Source: Candidatus Bathyarchaeota archaeon (GTDB taxonomy: Archaea; Thermoproteota; Bathyarchaeia; TCS64). From it: a stretch of 64,000 bases of DNA. How positions within the stretch are numbered: position 1 is the stretch's first letter; every line of letters starts with the position of its first letter. The notes beneath the pieces are model-generated. The model was not told the DNA's origin. It was given only the letters and a program-made list of their open reading frames with translations, and did not search any database. The position numbers and the translations under genes are program-made. Below are positions 14,557 to 24,989 of this stretch, piece after piece. The DNA lies in assembly GCA_963769425.1 (NCBI GenBank), contig CAVYLP010000006.1, positions 192,001 through 256,000 of the forward strand, given 5' to 3'.

Positions 14557-14865
14557 TCACTTAATTTCCATTTCTATATAGACTTCGTTAGGTACCCTAA
14601 TTCTCATGATGCTGCGCATCACGCGATCGCGCGCATCGATTTCTATGAGTCTCTTGTGTACCCGCATCTCGTACTTGTCCCACGTCTTGCTGCCGTCGCC
14701 GCACGGCGTCCTCCGGGTGGGGACCACGAGCTTCTTCGTTGGCAGTGGTATGGGTCCTACAAGTTTGACGCCTATCTTCTGGGCGATGTCCCTGATCTCG
14801 TCGCAGACACCCTCAAGCTTCTCGGTGTCGGTGCTTGTGAGCTTAATACGTGCGCGCCGCGCCAT
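14557..14865 (-). CDS. rpsJ: 30S ribosomal protein S10
   Basis: GPIPLPTKKL..RRTPCGDGSKTWDKYEMRVHKRLI. Confidence 0.98.
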   Translation of the reverse strand: MARRARIKLTSTDTEKLEGVCDEIRDIAQKIGVKLVGPIPLPTKKLVVPTRRTPCGDGSKTWDKYEMRVHKRLIEIDARDRVMRSIMRIRVPNEVYIEMEIK

Positions 14866-14931
14866 ACCTGTTCCCCGTCTTGTCAGATTACTGAGAACTT
14901 AAATGTATCGAAAAAGGGTGGGTGAGGGCGT

Positions 14932-16227
14932 TTATTCCTCGACTTCGAGGACGATGCCCGCGCCGATGGTCGTGCCCATGTCTCGCAGGGCGAACCTGCC
15001 GAGCTGTGGGAAGTCCTTGAATGCCTCGATGGCGATGGGCTGGAGGGGTACGAACTTTACGATTGCGGCCTCTCCTGTCCTGAGGTATGTGGGGTTCTGC
15101 TCCACGACCTGTCCCGTCCTGGGGTCGAGCTTGGCCTCGATGGCCTCGAACTTGACCGCGATCTGGGCGGTGTGTATGTGCAGCACCGGGGTGTAGCCTG
15201 GGCCGACTGCTGTGGGGTGGTGGATTATGAAGATCCTGCCCTTGAAGGCCTTCGCGACCTTGCAGGGGGTGTTCAGGTGGCTGGCGACCTCGCCGCGTTT
15301 TATCTTTTCGCGGTCGACGCCTTTGACGTTGAAGCCGATGTTGTCACCGGGGACTGCCTGCTCTAGGCGTGTGTAGTGGGTCTCGATGCTGTTGACTTTG
15401 CCCTTCTCGCCGCTCGGCATGAAGACGATGTCGTCGTTCACCTTGAGTACGCCAGTCTCGACTTTGCCAACTGGGGTAGTGCCCACACCACGGATGGTGT
15501 AGATCTCCTGAACAGGGATCCTTAGGGGCTTGTCAGTAGGCTTGGGGGGCATCGTGAAGGTGTCGAGTGCCTCGAGGAGCGTTGGGCCCTTGTACCAGGG
15601 CATGTTCGCGCTCTTCTTGACGAGGTTGTCGCCTCCCCAGCCGCTTGTGGGGACGAAGTTGACCTTGCTCGTATCGTAGCCGACTAGTTTGAGGAGGGTT
15701 GTGATGCCATCCTTGACTTCCTGGTAGCGCTGCTCGCTCCAAGCGACGGTCGGGTCGTCCATCTTGTTTATTGCGACGACGATCTGCCTAACTCCTAGGG
15801 TATAGGCGAGGAAGGCGTGCTCACGAGTCTGGCCTCCGGGGTTTGTCCCTGACTCATACTCGCCTTTCTTGGCGGAGATGAGGAGGATCGCGCCGTCTGC
15901 CTGGCTTGCACCGGTGACCATGTTCTTGACGAAGTCGCGGTGGCCGGGGCTGTCGATGACGGTGAAGAAGTTCTTCGCCGTCTCTAGCTTGTAGAAGGCG
16001 AGGTCGATGGTGATACCACGTTCGCGCTCCTCCTTGAGCCTGTCGAGGAGCCATGCGTACTTGAAGGACTCCTTGCCCATGGCTTTGGACTCTGCTTCCA
16101 TATCCTTCGCATATTTTTCGTCAATGGCGCCGGCGTCATAGAATAGGTGGCCAATGCTCGTGCTCTTACCGTGATCAACGTGTCCGATGATGATCAGGTT
16201 AATGTGTGGCTTCTCTTTACCGCTCAT
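14932..16227 (-). CDS. tuf: Translation elongation factor EF-1alpha
   Basis: GHVDHGKS, ERERGITID, DSPGHRDF, NKMD, LGRFALRDMG. Confidence 0.99.
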   Translation of the reverse strand: MSGKEKPHINLIIIGHVDHGKSTSIGHLFYDAGAIDEKYAKDMEAESKAMGKESFKYAWLLDRLKEERERGITIDLAFYKLETAKNFFTVIDSPGHRDFVKNMVTGASQADGAILLISAKKGEYESGTNPGGQTREHAFLAYTLGVRQIVVAINKMDDPTVAWSEQRYQEVKDGITTLLKLVGYDTSKVNFVPTSGWGGDNLVKKSANMPWYKGPTLLEALDTFTMPPKPTDKPLRIPVQEIYTIRGVGTTPVGKVETGVLKVNDDIVFMPSGEKGKVNSIETHYTRLEQAVPGDNIGFNVKGVDREKIKRGEVASHLNTPCKVAKAFKGRIFIIHHPTAVGPGYTPVLHIHTAQIAVKFEAIEAKLDPRTGQVVEQNPTYLRTGEAAIVKFVPLQPIAIEAFKDFPQLGRFALRDMGTTIGAGIVLEVEE

Positions 16228-16686
16228 TTCTCTAATCTCCTACTCAATCCGAACTGGATGGTGGATAAAAAGGTTCGGTTCACATCTATAAACCATACTA
16301 ATTAGTCCTCGTGGCAACCTCTAATTCTGGGTAAACATCGGCAACAAGAAAATTACATAGATATAACCCTCGAAAAAAGAGCACCTTTCTTAGACGTCAT
16401 AAGAACATATCCAAAGTATCTGAGATCCCCAAAACTAGTTAATCTGCGAATTTTTTTTTCAAATATGACCTGCTACGGTCATAAGGGAGACTTGAAAACA
16501 GCTCCTTTTCACATGACTACTTTGACTAGCTAATTCATTTATCTTGGAATGTTTAATTTAGAATTATTTTAATCAGATTAATCATTGAACCAACTTCTTG
16601 CAACCTGTTTTACACCTAACCAATGAAAATTTCTAATATGCGTAAAGTTTAAACATGTCAGCCGACACCGGAAGGTGGAGAATCGC

Positions 16687-17115
16687 TTGACTAACGGTAT
16701 GTTCTCTGCCCGCAGGCTCAAAAATAACAGGAGGGCTATGCGGTACAAGAGCAAGGACTTCGTCCTCCGAATGAAGCGCCGAACTACGAAGAAGGATCTC
16801 CTCATGGGCGCTCCAATGGGCAGGGGCATCGTACTCCAGAAGGTGGGCGTCGAGTCCAAGCAGCCAAACTCCGCCATCCGCAAGTGCGTTCGCATCCAGA
16901 TCATCAAGAACGGCCGACTCGCCACGGCTTTCCTCCCCGGCGACGGCGCCCTCAACTTCGTCGACGAACACGACGAGGTCACCATCGAGGGCATCCACGG
17001 CCCCCGCAGCCGCAGCATGGGGGACATTCCCGGCGTCCGCTACAAGGTGAGCGCCGTGAACGGTGTCCCACTTAATCTCCTGGTCGTCGGAAAGATCCAG
17101 AAGCCCACCAGGTAA
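16687..17115 (+). CDS. rpsL: 30S ribosomal protein S12
   Basis: [24 protein letters not shown]. Confidence 0.98.
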
Positions 17116-17142: not shown

Positions 17143-18333
17143 TTAGACGAGCTTCTTGTTTATTGGCTTGGTTTCCTTCGCTATTAGGCTTGGTACGAAG
17201 GCTACCGCGAAGAGAATGGATGATAGGTAGAAGGTCCATGAGGCGCCCTGGGCGGCGAGCACCCAAGTCATTATAATCGGGCCGGTTATTGAGCCCAGGT
17301 CGAAGAAGGTGCGGTACGTCCCGACGGCGGCCCCCCGGCTCTCCGCCTCAACCGACTCCGCGGCGAAGACTGGGCCGATTATCCAAATCGCCCCCGTCGT
17401 AATCCCGAGTAGGAAGAAGATAGCCGATGTCATGACGAGCCCGGAGACCAAAGTCAACGGCAGGACCATTACGGCGGTCGCCGCGATCCCGAACATCAGG
17501 ACCGGTTTTCTGCCGATCCTATCGGATATCATCCCCATAGTGAATATGGCGAGGACGTAGCCGATGGACATGGCGCCCATTATGATGCCTATGTCAGTCA
17601 GGCTCATCTTCAGGGTCCCGTTGGCGTACAGCGGGTAGGTTGTGTAGAGTACACCCTGGCTCACCACGAAGGAGACGAATGTCGCTAAACATACGGTGAG
17701 GAGCGTCCTGTTGCGGAACATCTTCGGGATGTCGGAGAGGTTCATCGGCCGGGACTTCGGGATGGTTAAGGCTTCTTTCTTGATTCTCGGTATTAGTATG
17801 AGGGCTACGGCGATGACGCAGAGTATGGCGGCGAGTATGAAGCCGCCAAAGAAGCCGAGCTCGGTGATGAGAAACCCGCTGACGGTTGAGCCTAGGATGG
17901 TCCCGCTGAATTCGATCCCCTGGAATATCCCCATCGCGCTCCCTCGGGTCTCGATGGGAAACATGTTCAGGATGAGGGTCATCGAGACGGCGAAGAAGAG
18001 GGGCGCGCCGAATCCCTGCAGCCCCCTCGCTATGATCAGCTGAACGGGGTCCGTGACGAAGGCGTTATAGAATGTGCCTATCGTGGTGAGGATGAGGCCG
18101 AGGAACATGGGCCAGTAGTAGCCCCAGCGGGAGGAGATGAAGCCGCTCGGTATCTCGAGCAGCACCCTCGCCACCCAGTAGGCGGCGACGCTGAAGCCTA
18201 TCATCACACCCGTGGCGCCTAGCGACTTCGCGAATATCGAGAGGAGGGGGTTGATCAGACTCGTGGAGAACATTGCGAGGAGGGCGACGACGCATAGGAT
18301 TACGTAGGAAACGCTGTAGCCTTTTCGCGACAT
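17143..18333 (-). CDS. MFS transporter
   Basis: Many hydrophobic segments; motif-A-like SDRIGRKPV. Confidence 0.9.
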   Translation of the reverse strand: MSRKGYSVSYVILCVVALLAMFSTSLINPLLSIFAKSLGATGVMIGFSVAAYWVARVLLEIPSGFISSRWGYYWPMFLGLILTTIGTFYNAFVTDPVQLIIARGLQGFGAPLFFAVSMTLILNMFPIETRGSAMGIFQGIEFSGTILGSTVSGFLITELGFFGGFILAAILCVIAVALILIPRIKKEALTIPKSRPMNLSDIPKMFRNRTLLTVCLATFVSFVVSQGVLYTTYPLYANGTLKMSLTDIGIIMGAMSIGYVLAIFTMGMISDRIGRKPVLMFGIAATAVMVLPLTLVSGLVMTSAIFFLLGITTGAIWIIGPVFAAESVEAESRGAAVGTYRTFFDLGSITGPIIMTWVLAAQGASWTFYLSSILFAVAFVPSLIAKETKPINKKLV

Positions 18334-18374
18334 TGTACCCTTAGCGCTCTATATCTCGTTATTATAAGTCTGGT

Positions 18375-18383
18375 GATCTTCGG
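18375..18383 (+). repeat. Left target-site duplication GATCTTCGG
   Basis: Identical 9-mer at 24312-24320; both copies directly abut the TIRs. Confidence 0.92.
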
Positions 18384-18407
18384 GATACTGTTCAGTCTTT
18401 TGTCATA
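18384..18407 (+). repeat. Left terminal inverted repeat GATACTGTTCAGTCTTTTGTCATA
   Basis: Exact reverse complement of 24288-24311. Confidence 0.95.
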
Positions 18408-18422
18408 GTAGGATTTAACTGA

Positions 18423-19571
18423 CTATGTGATGGACGGGATTGGTTGAAGATCTCTCTCTAACTCAAGATTAGTTGTGTTGGATATTTTCTTTACCGGGTA
18501 AACGCTGAATGCCTCTTCAAAACTATCGGCTTTTCTAAACTTCTTGACTAATCCTTCGTAAGGAGGAAATGCCCCCCCATAACCAAGTATTCTCCTTGCG
18601 TTACCAACCATTTTTAATTGTTGATCCGTCCATAATGGTGATTTAAACTGGTTTTTTTCCAATGAGGTTAATGGTTCATATCTCATTGGATAAGATACAC
18701 ACCCTAGATCTGCAACTAATCGCGTTCGTTCAAAAAATGAATACGGATTATCACCACCGTAACTTTCATCGTAAAAATTGTAAATTGTGTAAAAGAAGAT
18801 CTTCCGTTTTCTTATACCACTTTGCGAAAGACGTTCTATGGCTTTTGTAACCTGTATTTTTTCATTATTATCATCAAACGCAGTCCTGATTATAGGAGTT
18901 GTTAGATCCGCTATCATACGGGCTTTCTCATCATCGATGAGACGACAATCAATTCCTTGGTTAAAATCAACAGGCAATCCTATGTCCCGTAGAGCAACAA
19001 GCATTTTTCTCCAATTTGGAGATGCAAGGATATTATTATCCCATAGAATAATTCTCTTATGACCCGGATAGACATAACGCTCTAACTCTTCTATTACAGA
19101 ATGAATCTTCCCTTCTAGTTTTGGAACAATGCAAAAAGGGCAGCTTCTGATACATCCTCTTGAAGTGAAAAGGATTGTACTATCCCATTTTTTCCATCGT
19201 TCGACATCATCTAAAATATCATATGCTGGAATGTAACTATCCGCTTTCTCAAAAAGTCCTGTGTGAACCTCTGTAAATGGAAAAAATGATTTAACTCTCT
19301 CAGACATTAATGATGCATAAATTCCTCCAACCCGTATCCTTGCATCAAGATATTTAGCATGGTAAAATTCGATTGCCTCATGCACCGGTTTCCATGCATA
19401 GGTGAATAAGGAGGTTATTTCTACAATATCAGGTTTAAAACTCCCATCCTCCTCCATACCATGGACGAGTTTAACTTGGTTACCTCTGGAACGATGGTAC
19501 GAAGCTAACTTGAGTAATCCGAGGGGAGGGAAACCGCTATAATATGCGGGCTCAACGAGCAGAACTTTCAT
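18423..19571 (-). CDS. Radical SAM protein with N-terminal B12-binding-like domain
   Basis: SRGCIRSCPFC (CxxxCxxC); N-terminal PPLGLLKLASYH and RVGGIYASL; WDNN and DFNQGID. Confidence 0.85.
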   Translation of the reverse strand: MKVLLVEPAYYSGFPPLGLLKLASYHRSRGNQVKLVHGMEEDGSFKPDIVEITSLFTYAWKPVHEAIEFYHAKYLDARIRVGGIYASLMSERVKSFFPFTEVHTGLFEKADSYIPAYDILDDVERWKKWDSTILFTSRGCIRSCPFCIVPKLEGKIHSVIEELERYVYPGHKRIILWDNNILASPNWRKMLVALRDIGLPVDFNQGIDCRLIDDEKARMIADLTTPIIRTAFDDNNEKIQVTKAIERLSQSGIRKRKIFFYTIYNFYDESYGGDNPYSFFERTRLVADLGCVSYPMRYEPLTSLEKNQFKSPLWTDQQLKMVGNARRILGYGGAFPPYEGLVKKFRKADSFEEAFSVYPVKKISNTTNLELERDLQPIPSIT

Positions 19572-19660
19572 AGGGAATGAAGCAATTTTAGGGGATAAAA
19601 ATGTTTCTGATAAAAATGGAAAAAAGGATCCAATAATGTATTTTATTATGGATTCCCTTT

Positions 19661-21376
19661 TTAAAGGTCTTTGACATTCTTGGATTTCTCTATCAATCGA
19701 AGTATGAGGTCTTGTGTCATGAGAAATTCTGTCATCGTATCAATTTTCTCTTCATCACTCATGGTTTCATAATATGAAAAAGAAATCTTCCCTCTTTCAT
19801 GCTTGTATGGATCAACGAATAAGTAATGGAGTGCAGAAATCATGGCTCCGAAGAGACGGTCACGGTATCTATCCTCGTTATTTGGTTTTTTATTAGCTAG
19901 AGTAAGAATAGGACCATTATCTCCTCTCTCAACGTTTTTCCAGTCAAAAGATCTTTGAGATAATTCCGCTATCTCACTGATTGTTAACCCTGTTTTTTGT
20001 CTTAGTAGATTTGCCACTGGGTCCATAGCATCAATGTTCAATTCCAATTTACCCCTCTTTGTTGTTAGTCTTAGATGTTCCTTAAGTTCAGGATGGCATG
20101 CTTTCGTCAATTCTGAAAGTCTCTCCATTTTTTCTTTGATGAGATCAGAAGGTTCTTCTTTTGTTTTTTCAAGGATTTCTTTTTCTAATTCTTCAATAGA
20201 TTTGGTTTCTTCCGCAGATTTCAAGTCAATTGCTTCTTTCATTTTCAATAAAGCAGGGTCTTTAGGAAAGCTTCGTTTTTGTTTTAACTTTTTCTTTAGT
20301 TTTACAATGGTGTTATTAGCATATTTTAGTTCACCAGAATTTACATCTTGTTTTATATGTTCTATGGTTTTTGTATTAATGTTATGTGATTGATAACGGT
20401 TCTGCTCTTGTACACTTCCTATAAAAACTCCTACTTGTTCATTTAATGGTTCGAGAATGTCATTATTTGCTTCAAAATTATTACGTGGAGCATTTTCCTT
20501 TAAATCATCAGTTATTATATGAATTTCTCCATATTGCCATTGATTAAACATACCATCGTGTTGTTTTATTACTAGATTTTCATCCCCGATTGTGATGCCT
20601 TTTTTCTTAAAATAAATGCCTCTGTTTGGAGGCTTTAATACACTATTGTTTTTGCCTGTAATGAGCCAACAATATGCTACTGGTTTTCCATTTATAACTA
20701 ACTTCTTATCGATGATAGTCTCAAAGAAAAGGTCATTGTTGTATGGAGGACGGAATATTTTTTGGTTTTCAAAGAAAATCTCTGCCATTTCGGTCTTGAT
20801 GCCATTTTCTGAAAGCCTCTTGTTAATCTCCTTTCCTAATGTAAATTTATCGGTATCGAATGGTGCAGGAAGATTCTGTGATAGATAATCCGTAATAAGA
20901 TTATCAGTGAATATCGTGTGTTGATTCGGTAGCATTTCCTCAAGTCTAACGGTCGTAAAATGCGATTCTTCAAGTGTTTCATCTTTTCCTAATTCAATAT
21001 TTTCAATGTTTCCCGTGATGTTATTTAATACTTCAATGGCTGGTTTGTTTAAGGTATATTGATCTCTTAACATATCTGCGTTTATTTCTACTCTGAACTT
21101 TGGATGACCCTGTTTTTTAGTTATTATAACAATTCTTCGACAAACAGGAATACCACTCCATATTCCAATTCCTCTCCAACCAATTAGTTCCCCAGATTTT
21201 TCGCTTACACCAAGATATAATGATTTTTCTAATTCTTTCTCATCCATACCACACCCATCATCTTTTATTATTAGATCAATATGTTTATTCTCAAAATACA
21301 CATCGACACGTTTTGCTCCTGCATCAAAGCTATTTTGGATGTATTCACGAAGGCTGTTTCTATTTCCATCATACAA
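19661..21376 (-). CDS. GHKL (Hsp90/MORC-like) ATPase with putative C-terminal Ymh-type HEPN domain
   Basis: LREYIQNSFDA, KDDGCGM and GWRGIG GHKL boxes; C-terminal ~120 aa resembles TIGR02391/Ymh; true start may lie upstream. Confidence 0.8.
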   Translation of the reverse strand: MYDGNRNSLREYIQNSFDAGAKRVDVYFENKHIDLIIKDDGCGMDEKELEKSLYLGVSEKSGELIGWRGIGIWSGIPVCRRIVIITKKQGHPKFRVEINADMLRDQYTLNKPAIEVLNNITGNIENIELGKDETLEESHFTTVRLEEMLPNQHTIFTDNLITDYLSQNLPAPFDTDKFTLGKEINKRLSENGIKTEMAEIFFENQKIFRPPYNNDLFFETIIDKKLVINGKPVAYCWLITGKNNSVLKPPNRGIYFKKKGITIGDENLVIKQHDGMFNQWQYGEIHIITDDLKENAPRNNFEANNDILEPLNEQVGVFIGSVQEQNRYQSHNINTKTIEHIKQDVNSGELKYANNTIVKLKKKLKQKRSFPKDPALLKMKEAIDLKSAEETKSIEELEKEILEKTKEEPSDLIKEKMERLSELTKACHPELKEHLRLTTKRGKLELNIDAMDPVANLLRQKTGLTISEIAELSQRSFDWKNVERGDNGPILTLANKKPNNEDRYRDRLFGAMISALHYLFVDPYKHERGKISFSYYETMSDEEKIDTMTEFLMTQDLILRLIEKSKNVKDL

Positions 21377-21601
21377 TCCTGCCGTAACTGCCTCAAGAAG
21401 TCTGGCACCAAAAGCTTCATTGGTAAATAATACTAAGGTAGATCCCTCTGTGTTTCATCATAGTATCAACCGCTTATATCTTATATGTCTCTATAACTCT
21501 TAAGGTTCTTTCCATTCTCGATTTTAATTTTAATCTTATTCATTGCTTTCTGAATCAATACTATTTTCTCTAACCCCCGTCAAAGAGGTGTCAGTGATTT
21601 A

Positions 21602-21664
21602 GGTATCCTAGGGGTATACCACAAGAGATATATAATTAGGGTATCCTGTAGGATATCTGTAGGA
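21602..21664 (+). promoter_or_regulatory. Transposase promoter: TATA box flanked by GGTATCC-like repeats
   Basis: ATATATAA at 21628-21635; GGTATCC 21602, GGTATACC 21613, GGTATCC 21640, GGATATC 21651. Confidence 0.5.
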
Positions 21665-21675
21665 GTTTGGGAAAG

Positions 21676-22590
21676 ATGAGTTGCAAGTACTGTGGGTCCG
21701 AAAAAATCGTCAAGAACGGAAAAGTCAAGGGAACACAGGTTTACAAGTGCAAGGAATGTGGACACAGGTTCTTCCAGAACGGCAACTTCTCAAAGATGCA
21801 GAGCGAGAAGCGGATCATAGCCGCAGCCTTAAACTTCTACTATGATGGACTATCGCTGAGAAAGGAGCAGCGCAACCTAGAGCAGATCTTCGGGGAACAC
21901 ATCAGCCAAGTTACAATCCTCAATTGGATTAAGAAGTACTCTAAGCTAGTCAAGGAGTATGTCGAGAAGCAGGCACCCCAGCTTTCAGGTCTCTGGCATG
22001 AGGATGAGACGATGCTAGGCTGTGAGGGGCGGAACATCTGGTTCTGGGAGATGATCGATGAGGACACCAAGTTCATGGTTGCAAGTCATATCTCAAACAC
22101 ACGAACATTTGAGGACACGATAGCCATATTTGATAAAGGGTTACAACAGAGCAAGGAGCGGCCTAAAGCCGTGTTCGTTGACGGGTGCAACGCATACAAA
22201 TCAGCGTTCAACAAGGTCTTCTATAGCAGGTACAAGACAGAGAAGGTAGAACTAGTACAACGAGTAGGGATAAGGGCTAGAGAGACAAACAACTCAATCG
22301 AGCGTCTACATGGAACCCTTAAGGACAGAACGAGGTGCATGAAAGGGCTACACAGCTACGAATCAACGAAACTGCTACTTGAGGGCTGGTCGGTTTACTA
22401 TAACTGCGTTAGGCCACATCAGAGCCTAGGCAACAGGACGCCGGCACAAGCAGCAGGGATGAATGTTCCAAACATTTGGCTGGGGCTCATAGAAGCGGCA
22501 ACCAAAGAAGAGGCGGTTGAATCAGTAGAAAAAATAAAGGGAGTAGAACCATTTTTGGATATGATGCAACTTGAGGTGAAAACGCGATGA
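21676..22590 (+). CDS. DDE transposase (IS1-like Zn ribbon + HTH + IS6/rve-like core)
   Basis: CKYCGS..KNG..QVYKCKECG; GLSLR..ISQVTILNWIKKY; WHEDET, VDG, NNSIERLHGTLK, YYNCVRPHQSL. Confidence 0.93.
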   Translation: MSCKYCGSEKIVKNGKVKGTQVYKCKECGHRFFQNGNFSKMQSEKRIIAAALNFYYDGLSLRKEQRNLEQIFGEHISQVTILNWIKKYSKLVKEYVEKQAPQLSGLWHEDETMLGCEGRNIWFWEMIDEDTKFMVASHISNTRTFEDTIAIFDKGLQQSKERPKAVFVDGCNAYKSAFNKVFYSRYKTEKVELVQRVGIRARETNNSIERLHGTLKDRTRCMKGLHSYESTKLLLEGWSVYYNCVRPHQSLGNRTPAQAAGMNVPNIWLGLIEAATKEEAVESVEKIKGVEPFLDMMQLEVKTR

Positions 22591-22751
22591 AGAAGGTGCT
22601 AGTGGCTTTACCGGATGAAGTAGTTAACATGGTAGACACCGAACTGAGTGGAAAACTTGGCGATGGTAGGAGTGACACGCTGAGAACCATAATCATGAAT
22701 TGGCTAGGTGAAAAGGGATATCTGACAAAGGAGGGCAAGTCAAGTGAATAA
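22587..22751 (+). CDS. CopG/ribbon-helix-helix regulator (54 aa)
   Basis: Manual translation MKKVLVALPDEVVNMVDTELSGKLGDGRSDTLRTIIMNWLGEKGYL; ATGA overlap with the transposase stop. Confidence 0.75.
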   Translation: MKKVLVALPDEVVNMVDTELSGKLGDGRSDTLRTIIMNWLGEKGYLTKEGKSSE

Positions 22752-22887
22752 AACCAAAAAAGAACTCGAAGAAGAGGTTGAACTACTGAGCACAATGCTT
22801 GAGAGTTTAGTACAACTACTTGAGGAAAAAGGGGTACTAACGCAAGTCGAGTGGGAAAGAACAATTAAAAATAACATAGTCTTATAG
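22744..22887 (+). CDS. Small helical protein (47 aa)
   Basis: Manual translation MNKTKKELEEEVELLSTMLESLVQLLEEKGVLTQVEWERTIKNNIVL; GGAGG SD; overlaps the RHH stop. Confidence 0.6.
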   Translation: MNKTKKELEEEVELLSTMLESLVQLLEEKGVLTQVEWERTIKNNIVL

Positions 22888-22990
22888 GGTTCTGGTAACT
22901 TAACGGACCTAAGCAATTTGAAAAACGAGTGATAACTAGCGGAACATATTCTAAAAAACGAACTCATGGAATTTGGGAATGCAAATAAAG

Positions 22991-23452
22991 TTAAATTAAG
23001 TCATCTGTCTTCCACTGTGGAAGTCGCTCAGCTTCAGCAAATGCATTCCGATAACGAAGACCTCGTTCAATGGCTTCTCTAGTGTGATATGCCGATACAT
23101 GCAACTCGCCTCCCATGTGAGGAACCTGACTGATTATACCCTCAGAAACTAGTTGTTTTAAAGCCCTACTCCAATGCTTCAATTTGCCTTTTTCGTATCC
23201 ACTTTTCAGATTTGTTTCAGTGTGATGTTTTATTTGATTTCCATCACGGCCTACCCAACAACCATGGTAATACAACTTATTGACTATAAACCCCTTGATA
23301 TGGGCGAGATCACCTTTGTTTAACCCCGTATTGATTCCCCATGGGTAATAATAGGATCTACCTATGACATACATATAAACTCTTGGTAAAATAAAACAAT
23401 CTCTTAAGACAATCTTAATATGTCCGTATATTGTTATACAATAACAATACAC
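22991..23452 (-). CDS. Hypothetical protein, probable winged-helix fold (true start likely downstream of 23452)
   Basis: NKLYYHGCW...HHTETNLKSG...ALKQLVSEGII...HVS resembles small archaeal wHTH-like proteins. Confidence 0.5.
   Translation of the reverse strand: MYCYCITIYGHIKIVLRDCFILPRVYMYVIGRSYYYPWGINTGLNKGDLAHIKGFIVNKLYYHGCWVGRDGNQIKHHTETNLKSGYEKGKLKHWSRALKQLVSEGIISQVPHMGGELHVSAYHTREAIERGLRYRNAFAEAERLPQWKTDDLI
23429..23449. promoter_or_regulatory. Palindromic putative operator TATTGTTAT-N3-ATAACAATA
   Basis: Perfect 9-bp inverted repeat between the two divergent small genes. Confidence 0.5.
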
Positions 23453-23485
23453 ACAAGTATAAATAAATGAGACAAAACAGATAGA

Positions 23486-23872
23486 ATGAGACAGAAAGAA
23501 AAGGAAGATGCTAGTATGGCCCCAGCAGGTAGCCGGAGATGGGGCGAAGACGCTTCAGATACGGAGGAGTATGCAGTTAGCGGCCCGTTGACGAGGCTCT
23601 TTGATTGCCCCACAGCCAGAGTGCTCGATCAGGCTTCATTAGTAGGTAAGATGGAACAAACGATCTCGATGCTAAAAGAGAGCACCAACCTAAGTTACAA
23701 GACTGTGGAAAAAGCTGTGAAGAAGTTGTTAGATCAGAAATTGATGGAGAAAGGCCGACGGATTGGGAATGCAAATACATACATCTTTCTCACAGAAAAT
23801 CACCTAAGTCAATTGATTGCTTGTGCCAACAAAATACAATTGGAGCATGTGAAAGAGCAATCTGAAAAATGA
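23486..23872 (+). CDS. Winged-helix DNA-binding protein
   Basis: PLTRLFDCPTARVLD...LSYKTVEKAVKKL...RRIGNANTY. Confidence 0.7.
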   Translation: MRQKEKEDASMAPAGSRRWGEDASDTEEYAVSGPLTRLFDCPTARVLDQASLVGKMEQTISMLKESTNLSYKTVEKAVKKLLDQKLMEKGRRIGNANTYIFLTENHLSQLIACANKIQLEHVKEQSEK

Positions 23873-23901
23873 TTTTTGATTCTTTTTAAAAAATAGATTT
23901 G

Positions 23902-24201
23902 TTAAAGTTTCTTTTGAACCATCTCTTTTTCATGTTTTATTTCTGGGGCCTCCTTAAACATACTTGAAGTCGGAGGTCTACTTTGCTTCACTCCCTTTAG
24001 AAGCTGTTCGATTGTTAGAATCTGAATCTGGGCTGTAGATCCCTCTCCTGAAGTCTCTTTGAATAGAACGTTATAATCGGCTTTGCTGTTGAATGCGGGA
24101 TCTAAGTAAATCAGGTCAACGGATTCGTCTTTGATGAATTTCCTCATGACCGTTAGATTATCGCCGTAATAGAGGGTATTCACGAAATCCGGATTAGACA
24201 T
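23902..24201 (-). pseudogene. Internally deleted DNA adenine/N4C methyltransferase remnant
   Basis: NTLYYGDNL..DESVDLIYLDPAFNS (DPPF-like) joined directly to a C-terminal IQILTIEQLL..FKEAP tail; SAM-binding region absent. Confidence 0.8.
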
Positions 24202-24287
24202 CAAGGATACACTGTCTTTGAACATTTAAAAGAAATTGGATTAAGCGGTTATCGGTTTCTAATAGGTATCCACGCTTTACAGTACCA

Positions 24288-24311
24288 TATGACAAAAGAC
24301 TGAACAGTATC
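24288..24311 (-). repeat. Right terminal inverted repeat
   Basis: TATGACAAAAGACTGAACAGTATC on the + strand. Confidence 0.95.
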
Positions 24312-24320
24312 GATCTTCGG
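24312..24320 (+). repeat. Right target-site duplication GATCTTCGG
   Basis: Identical to 18375-18383. Confidence 0.92.
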
Positions 24321-24377: not shown

Positions 24378-24989
24378 GTGAGCGAAGAACCAGAAGTTAC
24401 AATCGAGGCCACTACAGCGGGAACCGGCGGCATAAAGCTATTCGGCGAGTGGAGCTTCGAGAACATAGAGGTCCGGGACCCCGGCCTCAAGAGGTACCTA
24501 AAGATCTCTCCCGTCTTCATGCCCCACTCCGGTGGTCGCCACGAGGCCAGGAAGTTCCAGAAGAGCGAGATGAGCATCGTTGAGCGCTTCACCAACGACC
24601 TCCTGAAGCCAGGAAGCAGCGGCGGCGACAAGCCACGCGTCATGAACGCGGTTAGGACGGCCTTCAAGATCGTCTACGTAAAGACGGGTAGGAACCCCAT
24701 AGAGGTGCTCGTCCGCGCGGTCGAGAACTGCTCGCCCAACGAGGACACGACTCGCATCGGCTACGGTGGTGTCGTCTACAGACTCGCAGTCGACATCTCA
24801 CCCCAGCGCAGGATCGACCTCGCCCTGAGATTCATCGCGAAGGGAATCAAGGAGCAGACCTTCGGCAACAGGAAGACCTTCGAGGAGATCATCGCGGACC
24901 AGCTCGTCGGCGCCGCCCAGAACGACGGCAACAGCTTCGGCGTCCGAAGGAAGCGCGAGATGGAGCGCGTAGCGCAAGCCTCTAGGTAA
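24378..24989 (+). CDS. rpsG: 30S ribosomal protein S7
   Basis: KLFGEW..DPGLKRY, NPIEVLVRAVEN, VDISPQRRIDLALR, ERVAQASR. Confidence 0.97.
   Translation: MSEEPEVTIEATTAGTGGIKLFGEWSFENIEVRDPGLKRYLKISPVFMPHSGGRHEARKFQKSEMSIVERFTNDLLKPGSSGGDKPRVMNAVRTAFKIVYVKTGRNPIEVLVRAVENCSPNEDTTRIGYGGVVYRLAVDISPQRRIDLALRFIAKGIKEQTFGNRKTFEEIIADQLVGAAQNDGNSFGVRRKREMERVAQASR

Follow-up and report, generated by a model that had tools for sequence, protein, structure and literature searches.

A GHKL ATPase and radical SAM gene pair on an archaeal transposon: one mobile copy of a candidate defence-type module

Two kinds of proteins that recur in prokaryotic defence are brought together in the locus described here. 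GHKL ATPases of the MORC and paraMORC type reportedly occur in restriction-modification neighbourhoods of prokaryotes, as Iyer, Abhiman and Aravind are said to have described in 2008. Prokaryotic viperins (pVip) are antiviral enzymes of the radical S-adenosylmethionine (SAM) type, and we know of no radical SAM enzymes in defence other than makers of antiviral nucleotides. The locus lies in a stretch of 64,000 nt from Candidatus Bathyarchaeota archaeon (assembly GCA_963769425.1, contig CAVYLP010000006.1, positions 192,001 to 256,000); we call this whole stretch the window and count coordinates from its first letter. Two minus-strand genes of the window, one for a GHKL ATPase and one for a radical SAM protein, make up exactly the left arm of a transposon. 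We suggest that they are one mobile copy of a widespread, undescribed defence-type module, the enzyme of which acts on nucleic acid. The probability we attach to this reading is about one half.

We found no description of the pair in a full-text search of the literature, where supplements, such as the more than 500 candidate systems of 10.1101/2025.09.30.679545, might still list it. The accessible portions of PMC10853773, PMC4158269, PMC12044746, PMC3710099, 10.1101/2025.09.30.679545 and 10.64898/2026.09.30.754977 contain no account of it, and neither does that of 10.1101/2025.09.15.676423, whose Tables S1-S2 might list it. Defence-gene profiles were searched with PADLOC-DB 2.0.0 at E<=0.01. 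No model in this collection matches the radical SAM protein, and the ATPase has only a weak N-terminal match, to MzaB. The initial annotation, made from the sequence before these searches, did not recognise the pairing as a named system, and literature and PADLOC agree with it.

The ATPase gene (19661..21376, minus strand) encodes 571 aa when called from a TTG codon. By its motifs and fold the protein is a member of the MORC/MutL/Hsp90-type GHKL class. The Bergerat motifs E11-x3-N15-x2-D18-x2-A21, D39-x-G41-x-G43 and G66-W-R-G-I-G71 show little or no variation in an alignment of 32 members (32 of the 120 homologs listed), so that the ExxxNxxDA, DxGxG and GxxGxG motifs read by the initial annotation are all in place. 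HATPase_c_3 (PF13589; residues 9-100, 57 bits against a cut-off of 25) is the sole Pfam domain found, and the nearest solved relatives by sequence are MutL and MORC2. Residues from about 1 to 330 form the ATPase and an S5-like transducer, followed by a helical bundle (320-407) and an all-alpha domain (410-571); the predicted model has a predicted local distance difference test (pLDDT) score of 88. Residues W280-Q-Y-G-E-I-H286 and, in the C-terminal domain, K525-H526 are invariant and specific to the family.

The likeness to MORC and paraMORC proteins thus concerns the matches to MutL and MORC2 and the defence-type neighbourhoods of the relatives. The ATPase of the window differs from them in its partner, which is a radical SAM enzyme and not a methylase or endonuclease, in having no fused nuclease detected, and in its own W-Q-Y-G-E-I-H motif and invariant K-H. 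Two named defence ATPases also resemble it in part. The similarity to MzaB of the MZA system is limited to the N-terminal ATPase region (PADLOC E 1.8e-9, residues 8-91 only); the protein was rejected as an MzaB, since it scores 29.6 bits with NF041932 against a cut-off of 850 and no other Mza match was found among the open reading frames (ORFs) of the element. TmtA of Tiamat is, according to the accessible part of 10.64898/2026.09.30.754977, a GHL ATPase with a DUF3684 core and a C-terminal PD-(D/E)xK nuclease. One bacterial relative of our ATPase matches TmtA at E 1e-9. The ATPase of the window was rejected as a TmtA, as it has no match at E<=0.01 and carries the Pfam ATPase domain only; ATPases of 571-591 aa stand here against TmtA profile lengths of 1370-1782.

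The initial annotation further took the protein for a fusion with a HEPN domain, and this part of it found no support. In searches at the level of sequence, which did not include a separate fold search of residues 410-571, the C-terminal parts gave no match to a HEPN family at E<=10, and none of the 32 family members has a HEPN match at E<=0.1. The Rx4-6H motif is absent from the 32-member alignment, in which no arginine stands 4-6 residues ahead of a conserved histidine. The fold search of the full ATPase covered mainly residues 1-407, and Atlas searches with the C-terminal part returned unnamed clusters only (about 0.90, template-modelling score (TM) 0.35). Fusions of Ymh-type HEPN domains to paraMORC ATPases do exist (Anantharaman et al. 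2013, PMC3710099, in its accessible part) and may be what the initial annotation had in view. As far as that part describes them, they share with the window family a GHKL ATPase, a helical C-terminal extension and a conflict-type context, whereas the window family has neither a HEPN match at the sequence level nor the Rx4-6H motif. From predicted secondary structure, a helix-helix-hairpin at residues 452-492 looks like a winged helix.

The radical SAM gene (18423..19571, minus strand) is a full-length ORF of 382 codons, and its product has an N-terminal B12-binding-like Rossmann domain followed by a barrel. All 44 sequences of an alignment (33 of the 120 homologs listed, the window's own among them, and 11 from fetched loci) have the cluster motif C140-x3-C144-x2-C147, which contains the only invariant cysteines. 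The protein matches PHROG 9298, 'radical SAM domain protein', over its whole length with E 1.5e-59. Its AlphaFold model (pLDDT 91) gives 28 Foldseek matches at E<=0.001 in the PDB, of which the listed ones are almost without exception radical SAM enzymes. The best of them, MgmA, MiaB, MtaB, AprD4, TsrM, TokK, CysS, OxsB and RimO, are Rossmann and barrel enzymes (E 1e-10 to 1e-6, TM 0.5-0.6, identity 11-17%). By motif and fold the protein is therefore a member of the radical SAM superfamily, and the CxxxCxxC protein of the initial annotation is found as described. It reaches no curated family threshold in Pfam or NCBIfam, with 20.6 bits for PF04055 (cut-off 29.5), 15 bits for TIGR04014 (cut-off 360) and 20.9 bits for TIGR00089 (cut-off 251). 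The B12-binding-like N-terminus, also seen by the initial annotation, is matched at the level of fold; PF02310 is annotated on some homologs, and one bacterial relative scores 25.6 bits in a PF02310-type match, below the cut-off of 32.1. Judged from intact motifs and confident models, both the radical SAM protein and the ATPase look active.

Among described enzymes, the cobalamin-dependent class B radical SAM enzymes (MgmA 9ccb, TsrM 6wtf, TokK 7kdx, CysS and OxsB) and AprD4 (6fd2) have the same Rossmann domain and CxxxCxxC barrel, with a TM of 0.53-0.60, but the window protein is only 11-17% identical to them and shorter. AprD4 has the same N-terminal domain and is yet cobalamin-free. The two-domain layout is common to MiaB, RimO and MtaB as well (Foldseek E about 1e-9), with weak sequence matches around the cluster motif. 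However, the window protein has no auxiliary-cluster cysteines and no TRAM domain match, and thus it is not a methylthiotransferase. With the viperins it shares the radical SAM core in an antiviral context, and not the subclass of the fold; it has no PADLOC match to pVip at E<=0.01. The same holds for OpnA of Ophion, a radical SAM defence enzyme whose partners are PHP and PRTase proteins and, unlike in our pair, not a GHKL ATPase (10.1101/2025.09.30.679545, as far as accessible).

We asked how constantly the two genes go together. Loci on the ATPase side came from a scan of one genome per species, in which 171 GHKL relatives were confirmed and the best 80 kept (79 of them with an ATPase ORF); on the radical SAM side the best 80 of 569 confirmed relatives on metagenome contigs were kept. 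Among the 20 closest GHKL loci, 18 are evaluable and two end too soon. In 14 of these 18 the radical SAM gene lies directly downstream on the same strand, 41-98 nt from the ATPase gene, and is 47-73% identical to that of the window. The other four comprise one locus with the radical SAM gene of a second, convergent module and three misses, in two of which the ATPase gene itself is truncated or split. Over all 79 GHKL-anchored loci, 59 have a radical SAM ORF at a distance of up to 1500 nt, which in 32 of them is no more than 200 nt away; the remaining 20 have none. Approached from the other side, the 10 closest radical SAM loci (50-72% identity) have a GHKL gene directly upstream in 10 of 10. 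Co-occurrence of homologs was one of the checks that the initial annotation had proposed for the pair, and the closest loci of both sides display it. In a FastTree phylogeny of 173 radical SAM ORFs (those under 330 aa were dropped) the window protein falls into a clade of 24 members, all of them GHKL-paired, and the enclosing clade of 28 rows has a support of 99. ATPase pairing is scattered over most deep branches of this tree, the labels being biased because about one third of the rows come from the ATPase-anchored set. The pair is a conserved unit within its own clade, and across the wider families both partners are exchangeable.

The relatives keep company with genes of defence systems, as the initial annotation stated of such ATPases; DrmA/DrmB, PbeA/PbeC, DpdB-like, SNF2/DpdE-like, NERD-UvrD and Type IIG restriction-modification proteins are all met. 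DrmA occurs in 16 of the 80 GHKL loci and DrmB also in 16, in the same operon (PADLOC E 2e-159 and 8e-64), PbeA and PbeC in 3-4 and a DndB/DpdB-like gene in 5. Bacterial operons take several forms. One consists of the ATPase, a 335-aa protein (C2) and the radical SAM protein, and another of NurA-like and mad8-like proteins, two ATPases, C2 and the radical SAM protein. A six-gene type encodes protein C5, DrmA, DrmB, a NERD-UvrD helicase, the radical SAM protein and the ATPase, with no methyltransferase in its conserved gene set. A further type, with 10 loci, encodes the ATPase, a UvrD-like helicase, C5, DrmA and DrmB. The neighbours of viral and metagenome relatives include two ParB-like genes, an SNF2/DpdE-like helicase, a DndB/DpdB-like gene and serine recombinases. 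In archaea, Methanohalophilus euhalobius (L013) has PbeA, PbeC and a weak match to dnd-associated protein 4 upstream and an NsnB-like ATPase downstream, a locus of Atabeyarchaeia (L014) has a viperin-like (pVip-like) gene and HEC-05 near the pair, L023 has DrmA and DrmB, and L004 has a full-length methyltransferase two genes from the pair.

Compared with the described systems, the relatives share with DISARM (DrmA, DrmB, DrmC/D/E and the methylase DrmM) the DrmA and DrmB proteins in those 16 loci and in L023. Their conserved set differs from DISARM in containing no methylase; radical SAM and GHKL proteins, or GHKL and a UvrD-like helicase, are there instead. In the element of the window itself, DrmA and DrmB have no PADLOC match among the six ORFs. 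Relatives of the pair likewise adjoin DndB/DpdB-like proteins of the ParB fold, SNF2/DpdE-like helicases, PbeA and PbeC, which suggests a modification module with swappable restriction modules, as in Dpd, Dnd and Pbe. The pair nevertheless contains no homologs of DpdA, QueC/D/E or DndA/C/D/E, its chemistry would be that of a radical SAM enzyme, and Dpd, Dnd and Pbe genes are absent from the window.

Some of these loci drew our attention for their own sake. C2 occurs in 32 of the 80 loci, is bacterial and stands between the ATPase and the radical SAM gene (for example L030:11598-12605 and L025:12124-13116); its invariant residues include Y-x-G-x-P and N-x-D-F. It has no Pfam or PDB match and in NCBIfam only a weak match to the 'PP_RS20740 family'. 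C2 was considered as the counterpart of the C-terminal domain of the archaeal ATPase and discarded, a profile comparison giving a probability of 0.2 and no relation. A DISARM-like operon whose conserved set has neither a radical SAM gene nor a methyltransferase is found in L053, L057, L058, L060, L062, L063, L067, L068, L077 and L083. In a sister radical SAM clade (loci L126-L195), the partner is either NurA with a 550-aa mad8/HerA-like protein or a Type IIG restriction-methylase with a 460-aa protein.

The pair is carried by a transposon of 5,928 bp. Its ends are perfect 24-nt inverted repeats, the left one at 18384..18407 (plus strand) being 100% complementary to the right one at 24288..24311 (minus strand); no such match arose in 100 shuffles. 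The same 9 bases, GATCTTCGG, directly flank both repeats as a target-site duplication, with copies at 18375..18383 and 24312..24320. A DDE transposase of the IS6 family with an N-terminal zinc finger (21667..22590, plus strand, 307 aa; DDE_Tnp_IS240) scores 129.7 bits with NF033587, above the cut-off of 125. Transposase, inverted repeats and target duplication are all present, so the element is of IS6 type, and the transposase presumably acts on these 24-nt ends. Terminal repeat and transposase are each single-copy in the 2.55-Mb genome. Over 18500-21499 the G+C content is 0.32-0.38; on the left side it is 0.53-0.59 and on the right side 0.52-0.61. ORFs, base composition and inverted ends thus agree with the initial annotation, which had two co-oriented AT-rich genes filling the left arm of a transposon.

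The element moves and the family is widespread. Contigs of four other runs (X1-X4) carry matches that start exactly at 18383/18384, each with a different flank, and contigs of relatives in runs X1 and X4 join 18309 to 24316, which is the empty site; these data are assembled contigs, in which only presence can be shown. Sister copies of the transposon at other sites have about 89-93% DNA identity, and one of them differs from that of the window at 321 of 4,560 bases (about 93% identical). The copy in run X1 is without 22943-23903 (joint 22942 to 23904). In another sister copy, a diverged stretch of similar length replaces the 3' part of the ATPase gene (19571-20120). A search of 40 genomes related to that of the window, 17 of them at least 90% complete, found the GHKL gene in none. 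The pair as a unit is kept in archaea and in some contigs binned to Bacillota, and a search with the GHKL profile at E<=1e-30 yields 352 cluster representatives from archaea, many bacterial phyla and viruses. Among 31 loci on viral contigs with a relative of the radical SAM gene, 18 also have a GHKL gene. In the temperate Marinitoga camini virus 1 (KP836355.1; L199: 5992-9818) a 45%-identical radical SAM protein is encoded beside HerA and NurA, and this trio sits in the lysogeny/moron region of the virus. Bacteroides LoVEphage has a shorter, stand-alone radical SAM copy beside Dam and PAPS reductase, and Clostridium phage phiCT453B has a homolog of the radical SAM family too.

The spacer between the two genes contains a conserved control region that is new here, a pair of GGATCC boxes ahead of the radical SAM gene. 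Spacers of two-gene loci (window 19593-19660 and loci L004-L023 and L116-L125, from distant archaea) are poorly conserved overall, with a mean column identity of 38%. Fixed in them are two GGATCC boxes spaced by 23-24 nt, of which the proximal lies 58-61 nt ahead of the ATG, then a T-run and an element GGAA(A/T/C)C-N-TTTA(A/T), which we take to be an archaeal B recognition element (BRE) with TATA box. In the window the proximal box lies at 19626..19631, 60 nt upstream of the radical SAM ATG, next to the T-run 19620-19625; the distal box, GGGAATCC at 19650..19657, is degenerate here and lies 24-25 nt upstream of the proximal one. The BRE/TATA-like promoter element is AGAAACATTTTTATCC (19593..19608, minus strand), some 25-35 nt ahead of the ATG. 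If one mismatch per box is allowed, the two boxes are in place in 17 of 25 two-gene loci, and in 10 both are exact, while 1,000 shuffles gave a mean of 0.009 loci and a maximum of 1. The spacers have 11.6 GGATCC sites per kb, the loci as a whole 0.30 per kb. In loci with a short spacer the boxes fall within the 3' end of the ATPase coding region, so that their position is tied to the start of the radical SAM gene.

The role of the boxes may be that of an operator, of the system's own target site or of a hairpin. Folds of single sequences pair the two boxes (z -0.7 to -3.9), and RNAalifold on the spacer alignment gave no consensus pairs. A scan for sigma-70 promoters and terminators, with models not suited to archaea, showed no excess over shuffles. 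An invariant palindrome at fixed spacing would be expected less of a plain terminator than of a site for a dimeric DNA-binding protein, or of the target site of the system itself.

How could such a pair work? The radical SAM enzyme would be the catalytic part and would act on nucleic acid, most likely by putting a radical-chemistry mark on DNA. The ATPase would dimerise on ATP, clamp or sense DNA, and recruit or license the radical SAM enzyme. The GGATCC boxes could be bound by a dimeric DNA binder, possibly the C-terminal domain of the ATPase, or alternatively be the system's own target site; either way they would gate the expression of the radical SAM gene. We favour the marking of DNA for four reasons. 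The pair, often with a DndB/DpdB-like neighbour, fills the slot of the modification genes in DISARM-, Pbe- or Dpd-like layouts, those operons lack a conserved methyltransferase, phage homologs are located among DNA-modification genes, and the fold class is that of C-methylating B12 enzymes.

Carried further, this leads to a tentative model that we hold to be possible and not yet probable. A MORC-like clamp would license the radical SAM enzyme to set a novel DNA mark, a C-methyl or other radical adduct for which GGATCC-like sites are a possible place. The mark would stand in for that of a methyltransferase as the 'self' label of DrmAB, PbeAC, NurA/HerA-like or Type IIG partners. The promoter boxes would serve as a feedback sensor, and the compact archaeal form would be the one travelling on transposons and viruses. 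There is a real chance that a module of this kind, resembling the modification and restriction modules of defence islands and built around a MORC-type ATPase, performs new chemistry. If true, a whole family of immune or epigenetic modules would be concerned. A new principle would then be at work, in which a radical SAM enzyme and a MORC-like clamp jointly mark or attack DNA, with a link to the biology of eukaryotic MORC proteins and possible new tools for modifying DNA. The simplest version for experiments would be the compact archaeal form, which has two genes and a conserved promoter element of its own.

Several points weigh against an enzyme that marks DNA and against too strict a view of the pair. 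The substrate of the radical SAM enzyme is a proposal from gene context and fold class. Loci with the ATPase and DrmAB occur without any modifier, 10 of the 80 GHKL loci having a UvrD-like helicase and DrmAB and no radical SAM gene. In the 69 more distant radical SAM loci (42-52% identity) GHKL is nearby in only 7, and it is found in 4 of the 22 that have 2 kb on both sides; NurA with a mad8/HerA-like protein occurs in 11 of the 69 and a Type IIG-like with a 460-aa protein in 14. Neither partner is thus obligate. Locus counts, moreover, refer to loci picked by similarity, which are related sequences and not independent, and the sets include duplicates (L008=L122; L106-108 and L114). Neither a nuclease nor any other 'restriction' half is recognisable in the two-gene form. 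The separate, gated promoter of its radical SAM gene would suit a dangerous effector as well as a modifier; in restriction-modification systems it is the toxic half that is expressed late. The ATPase of the window has no canonical start and may be truncated by 20 conserved residues or inactive. The initial annotation had also counted a methyltransferase remnant of the element as a sign of defence cargo. The remnant is present (23902..24225, minus strand, beta class, 107 aa, N-terminal motif region only), but the support it lends is weak, since its 48% identity to the methyltransferase near the closest homolog covers only a generic 48-residue N-terminal motif region.

Three of these points, namely modifier-free ATPase-DrmAB loci, the gated promoter and the lack of a visible restriction half, make a sensor-effector arrangement of the abortive-infection type a serious rival. 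In it the ATPase would sense invader DNA or its ends and de-repress or activate the radical SAM enzyme, which would produce a toxic or antiviral nucleotide or damage nucleic acid with no self-marking. A radical SAM gene with its own promoter and conserved paired boxes looks tightly gated and possibly toxic, and the two-gene form has no separate restriction component. In the 10 loci where GHKL relatives stand with DrmAB and helicases and neither a radical SAM gene nor a methyltransferase is present, the ATPase would belong to the sensing or restriction side. Radical SAM antiviral effectors are known, the viperins being one case. OpnA of Ophion is a second (10.1101/2025.09.30.679545, accessible part). 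The enzyme of the window shows no similarity to pVip in PADLOC, however, and by fold class it belongs with the B12-type methylases and the MiaB-like enzymes rather than with viperin. The frequent DndB/DpdB-like neighbours are companions of DNA-modification modules, and stand-alone phage homologs lie beside genes of Dam methylase and PAPS reductase. We consider the effector model unlikely in comparison with a DNA-marking enzyme.

Readings that place the pair in the service of a selfish element, or outside nucleic acid altogether, are less likely than the effector model. The pair could hypermodify DNA or counter restriction and so shield the transposon, a virus or incoming DNA, or it could be an addiction module. 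It does ride on a transposon inserted at several sites, homologs occur on viral contigs, phages and prophages (Marinitoga camini virus 1, Bacteroides LoVEphage, Clostridium phage phiCT453B), and the radical SAM family has a PHROG. On the other hand, transposons and prophages commonly carry defence systems too, the linked DrmAB, PbeAC, NurA/HerA-like and Type IIG proteins are of restriction and not of anti-restriction type, and the homolog of Marinitoga camini virus 1 stands in a lysogeny/moron region by HerA and NurA. We regard this as a rather improbable account.

About equally doubtful, and compatible with any of the other readings, is that the window copy is decaying cargo and inactive whatever the family does. 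This concerns mainly the start of the ATPase gene. The conserved frame extends to 21436, and the 20 further codons (21377..21436, minus strand) match the conserved N-terminus of homologs but include no in-frame ATG, GTG or TTG. Two TGA codons lie directly upstream of 21436, and translation could begin at the TTG at 21376 at the earliest. Homologs of the closest subclade start with M or L followed by V-(L/K/I)-F-T-D-E-A-F-G, and the aligned codon of the window is TTA. Gene callers give 571 or 528 aa, the NCBI annotation starting 43 codons later from a later ATG. An ORF of 14 codons with an ATG-ATG beginning (21417..21461, minus strand, +1 frame) overlaps the start region, and its first nine residues resemble the N-terminal extensions of homologs P0127 and P0128. 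A CTT-AGT is found where this ORF and the ATPase frame could be bridged. The options are an internal TTG start with loss of 20 conserved residues, frameshifting, or decay; the N-terminus of the window's ATPase is uncertain because the ordinary start codon has been lost in this lineage.

The distal GGATCC box, degenerate in the window, and the methyltransferase cut down to 107 aa would fit decay as well. Against it speaks the ATPase frame, open over 571 codons with every family-invariant residue present, and the full-length ORF of the radical SAM protein. The 90% cluster of the ATPase contains four other copies, on contigs of 21952, 4765, 5988 and 7191 nt, all called from the same TTG. Three full-length sisters are identical to the window's at 567-570 of 571 residues (99%); the 564-aa copy on the 7191-nt contig is more diverged, with 490 of 564. 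One more entry, of 528 aa, is the protein of the window itself with the later ATG as its start. The ATPase gene looks maintained, because 99% protein identity is reached although one element is only about 93% identical in DNA. This identity in the three full-length sisters, and the same start layout in all four copies, argue for selection on a working gene.

A role outside nucleic acid, in which a Hsp90/MutL-like ATPase is the chaperone or assembly factor of a radical SAM enzyme for protein, peptide or cofactor and the defence neighbours are coincidental, could appeal to structural matches with the protein-modifying MgmA (methyl-coenzyme M reductase glutamine methylase) and the natural-product enzymes TsrM, TokK, CysS, AprD4 and OxsB, but is very improbable, as no precursor peptide, transporter or biosynthetic gene is conserved beside the pair, the conserved neighbours are DNA enzymes, the nearest solved ATPase relatives by sequence are MutL and MORC2, and the distribution is patchy and mobile.

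The right arm of the transposon holds the remaining ORFs. A divergent pair encodes 153 aa (22991..23452, minus strand) and 128 aa (23486..23872, plus strand), and both ORFs are missing from the same sister element, the one with about 93% identity. The 128-aa product has weak matches to winged-helix regulators, Csa3-like and MarR-like ones among them. The methyltransferase remnant, seen in the element by the initial annotation and by us, was considered as a component of the system and rejected, the shared part being the generic 48-residue motif region only. Outside the element, uS12 (16675-17115) and uS7 (24378-24989) match archaeal and eukaryotic ribosomal proteins, and a GC-rich gene for a major facilitator superfamily (MFS) transporter (17143-18333, minus strand) lies between uS12 and the transposon. 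From 14557-17115 onward the gene order is uS10 and EF-1alpha (minus), uS12 (plus), the MFS transporter (minus), the transposon and uS7. The insertion site is thus in a neighbourhood of ribosomal-protein genes, about 60 nt upstream of the uS7 gene.

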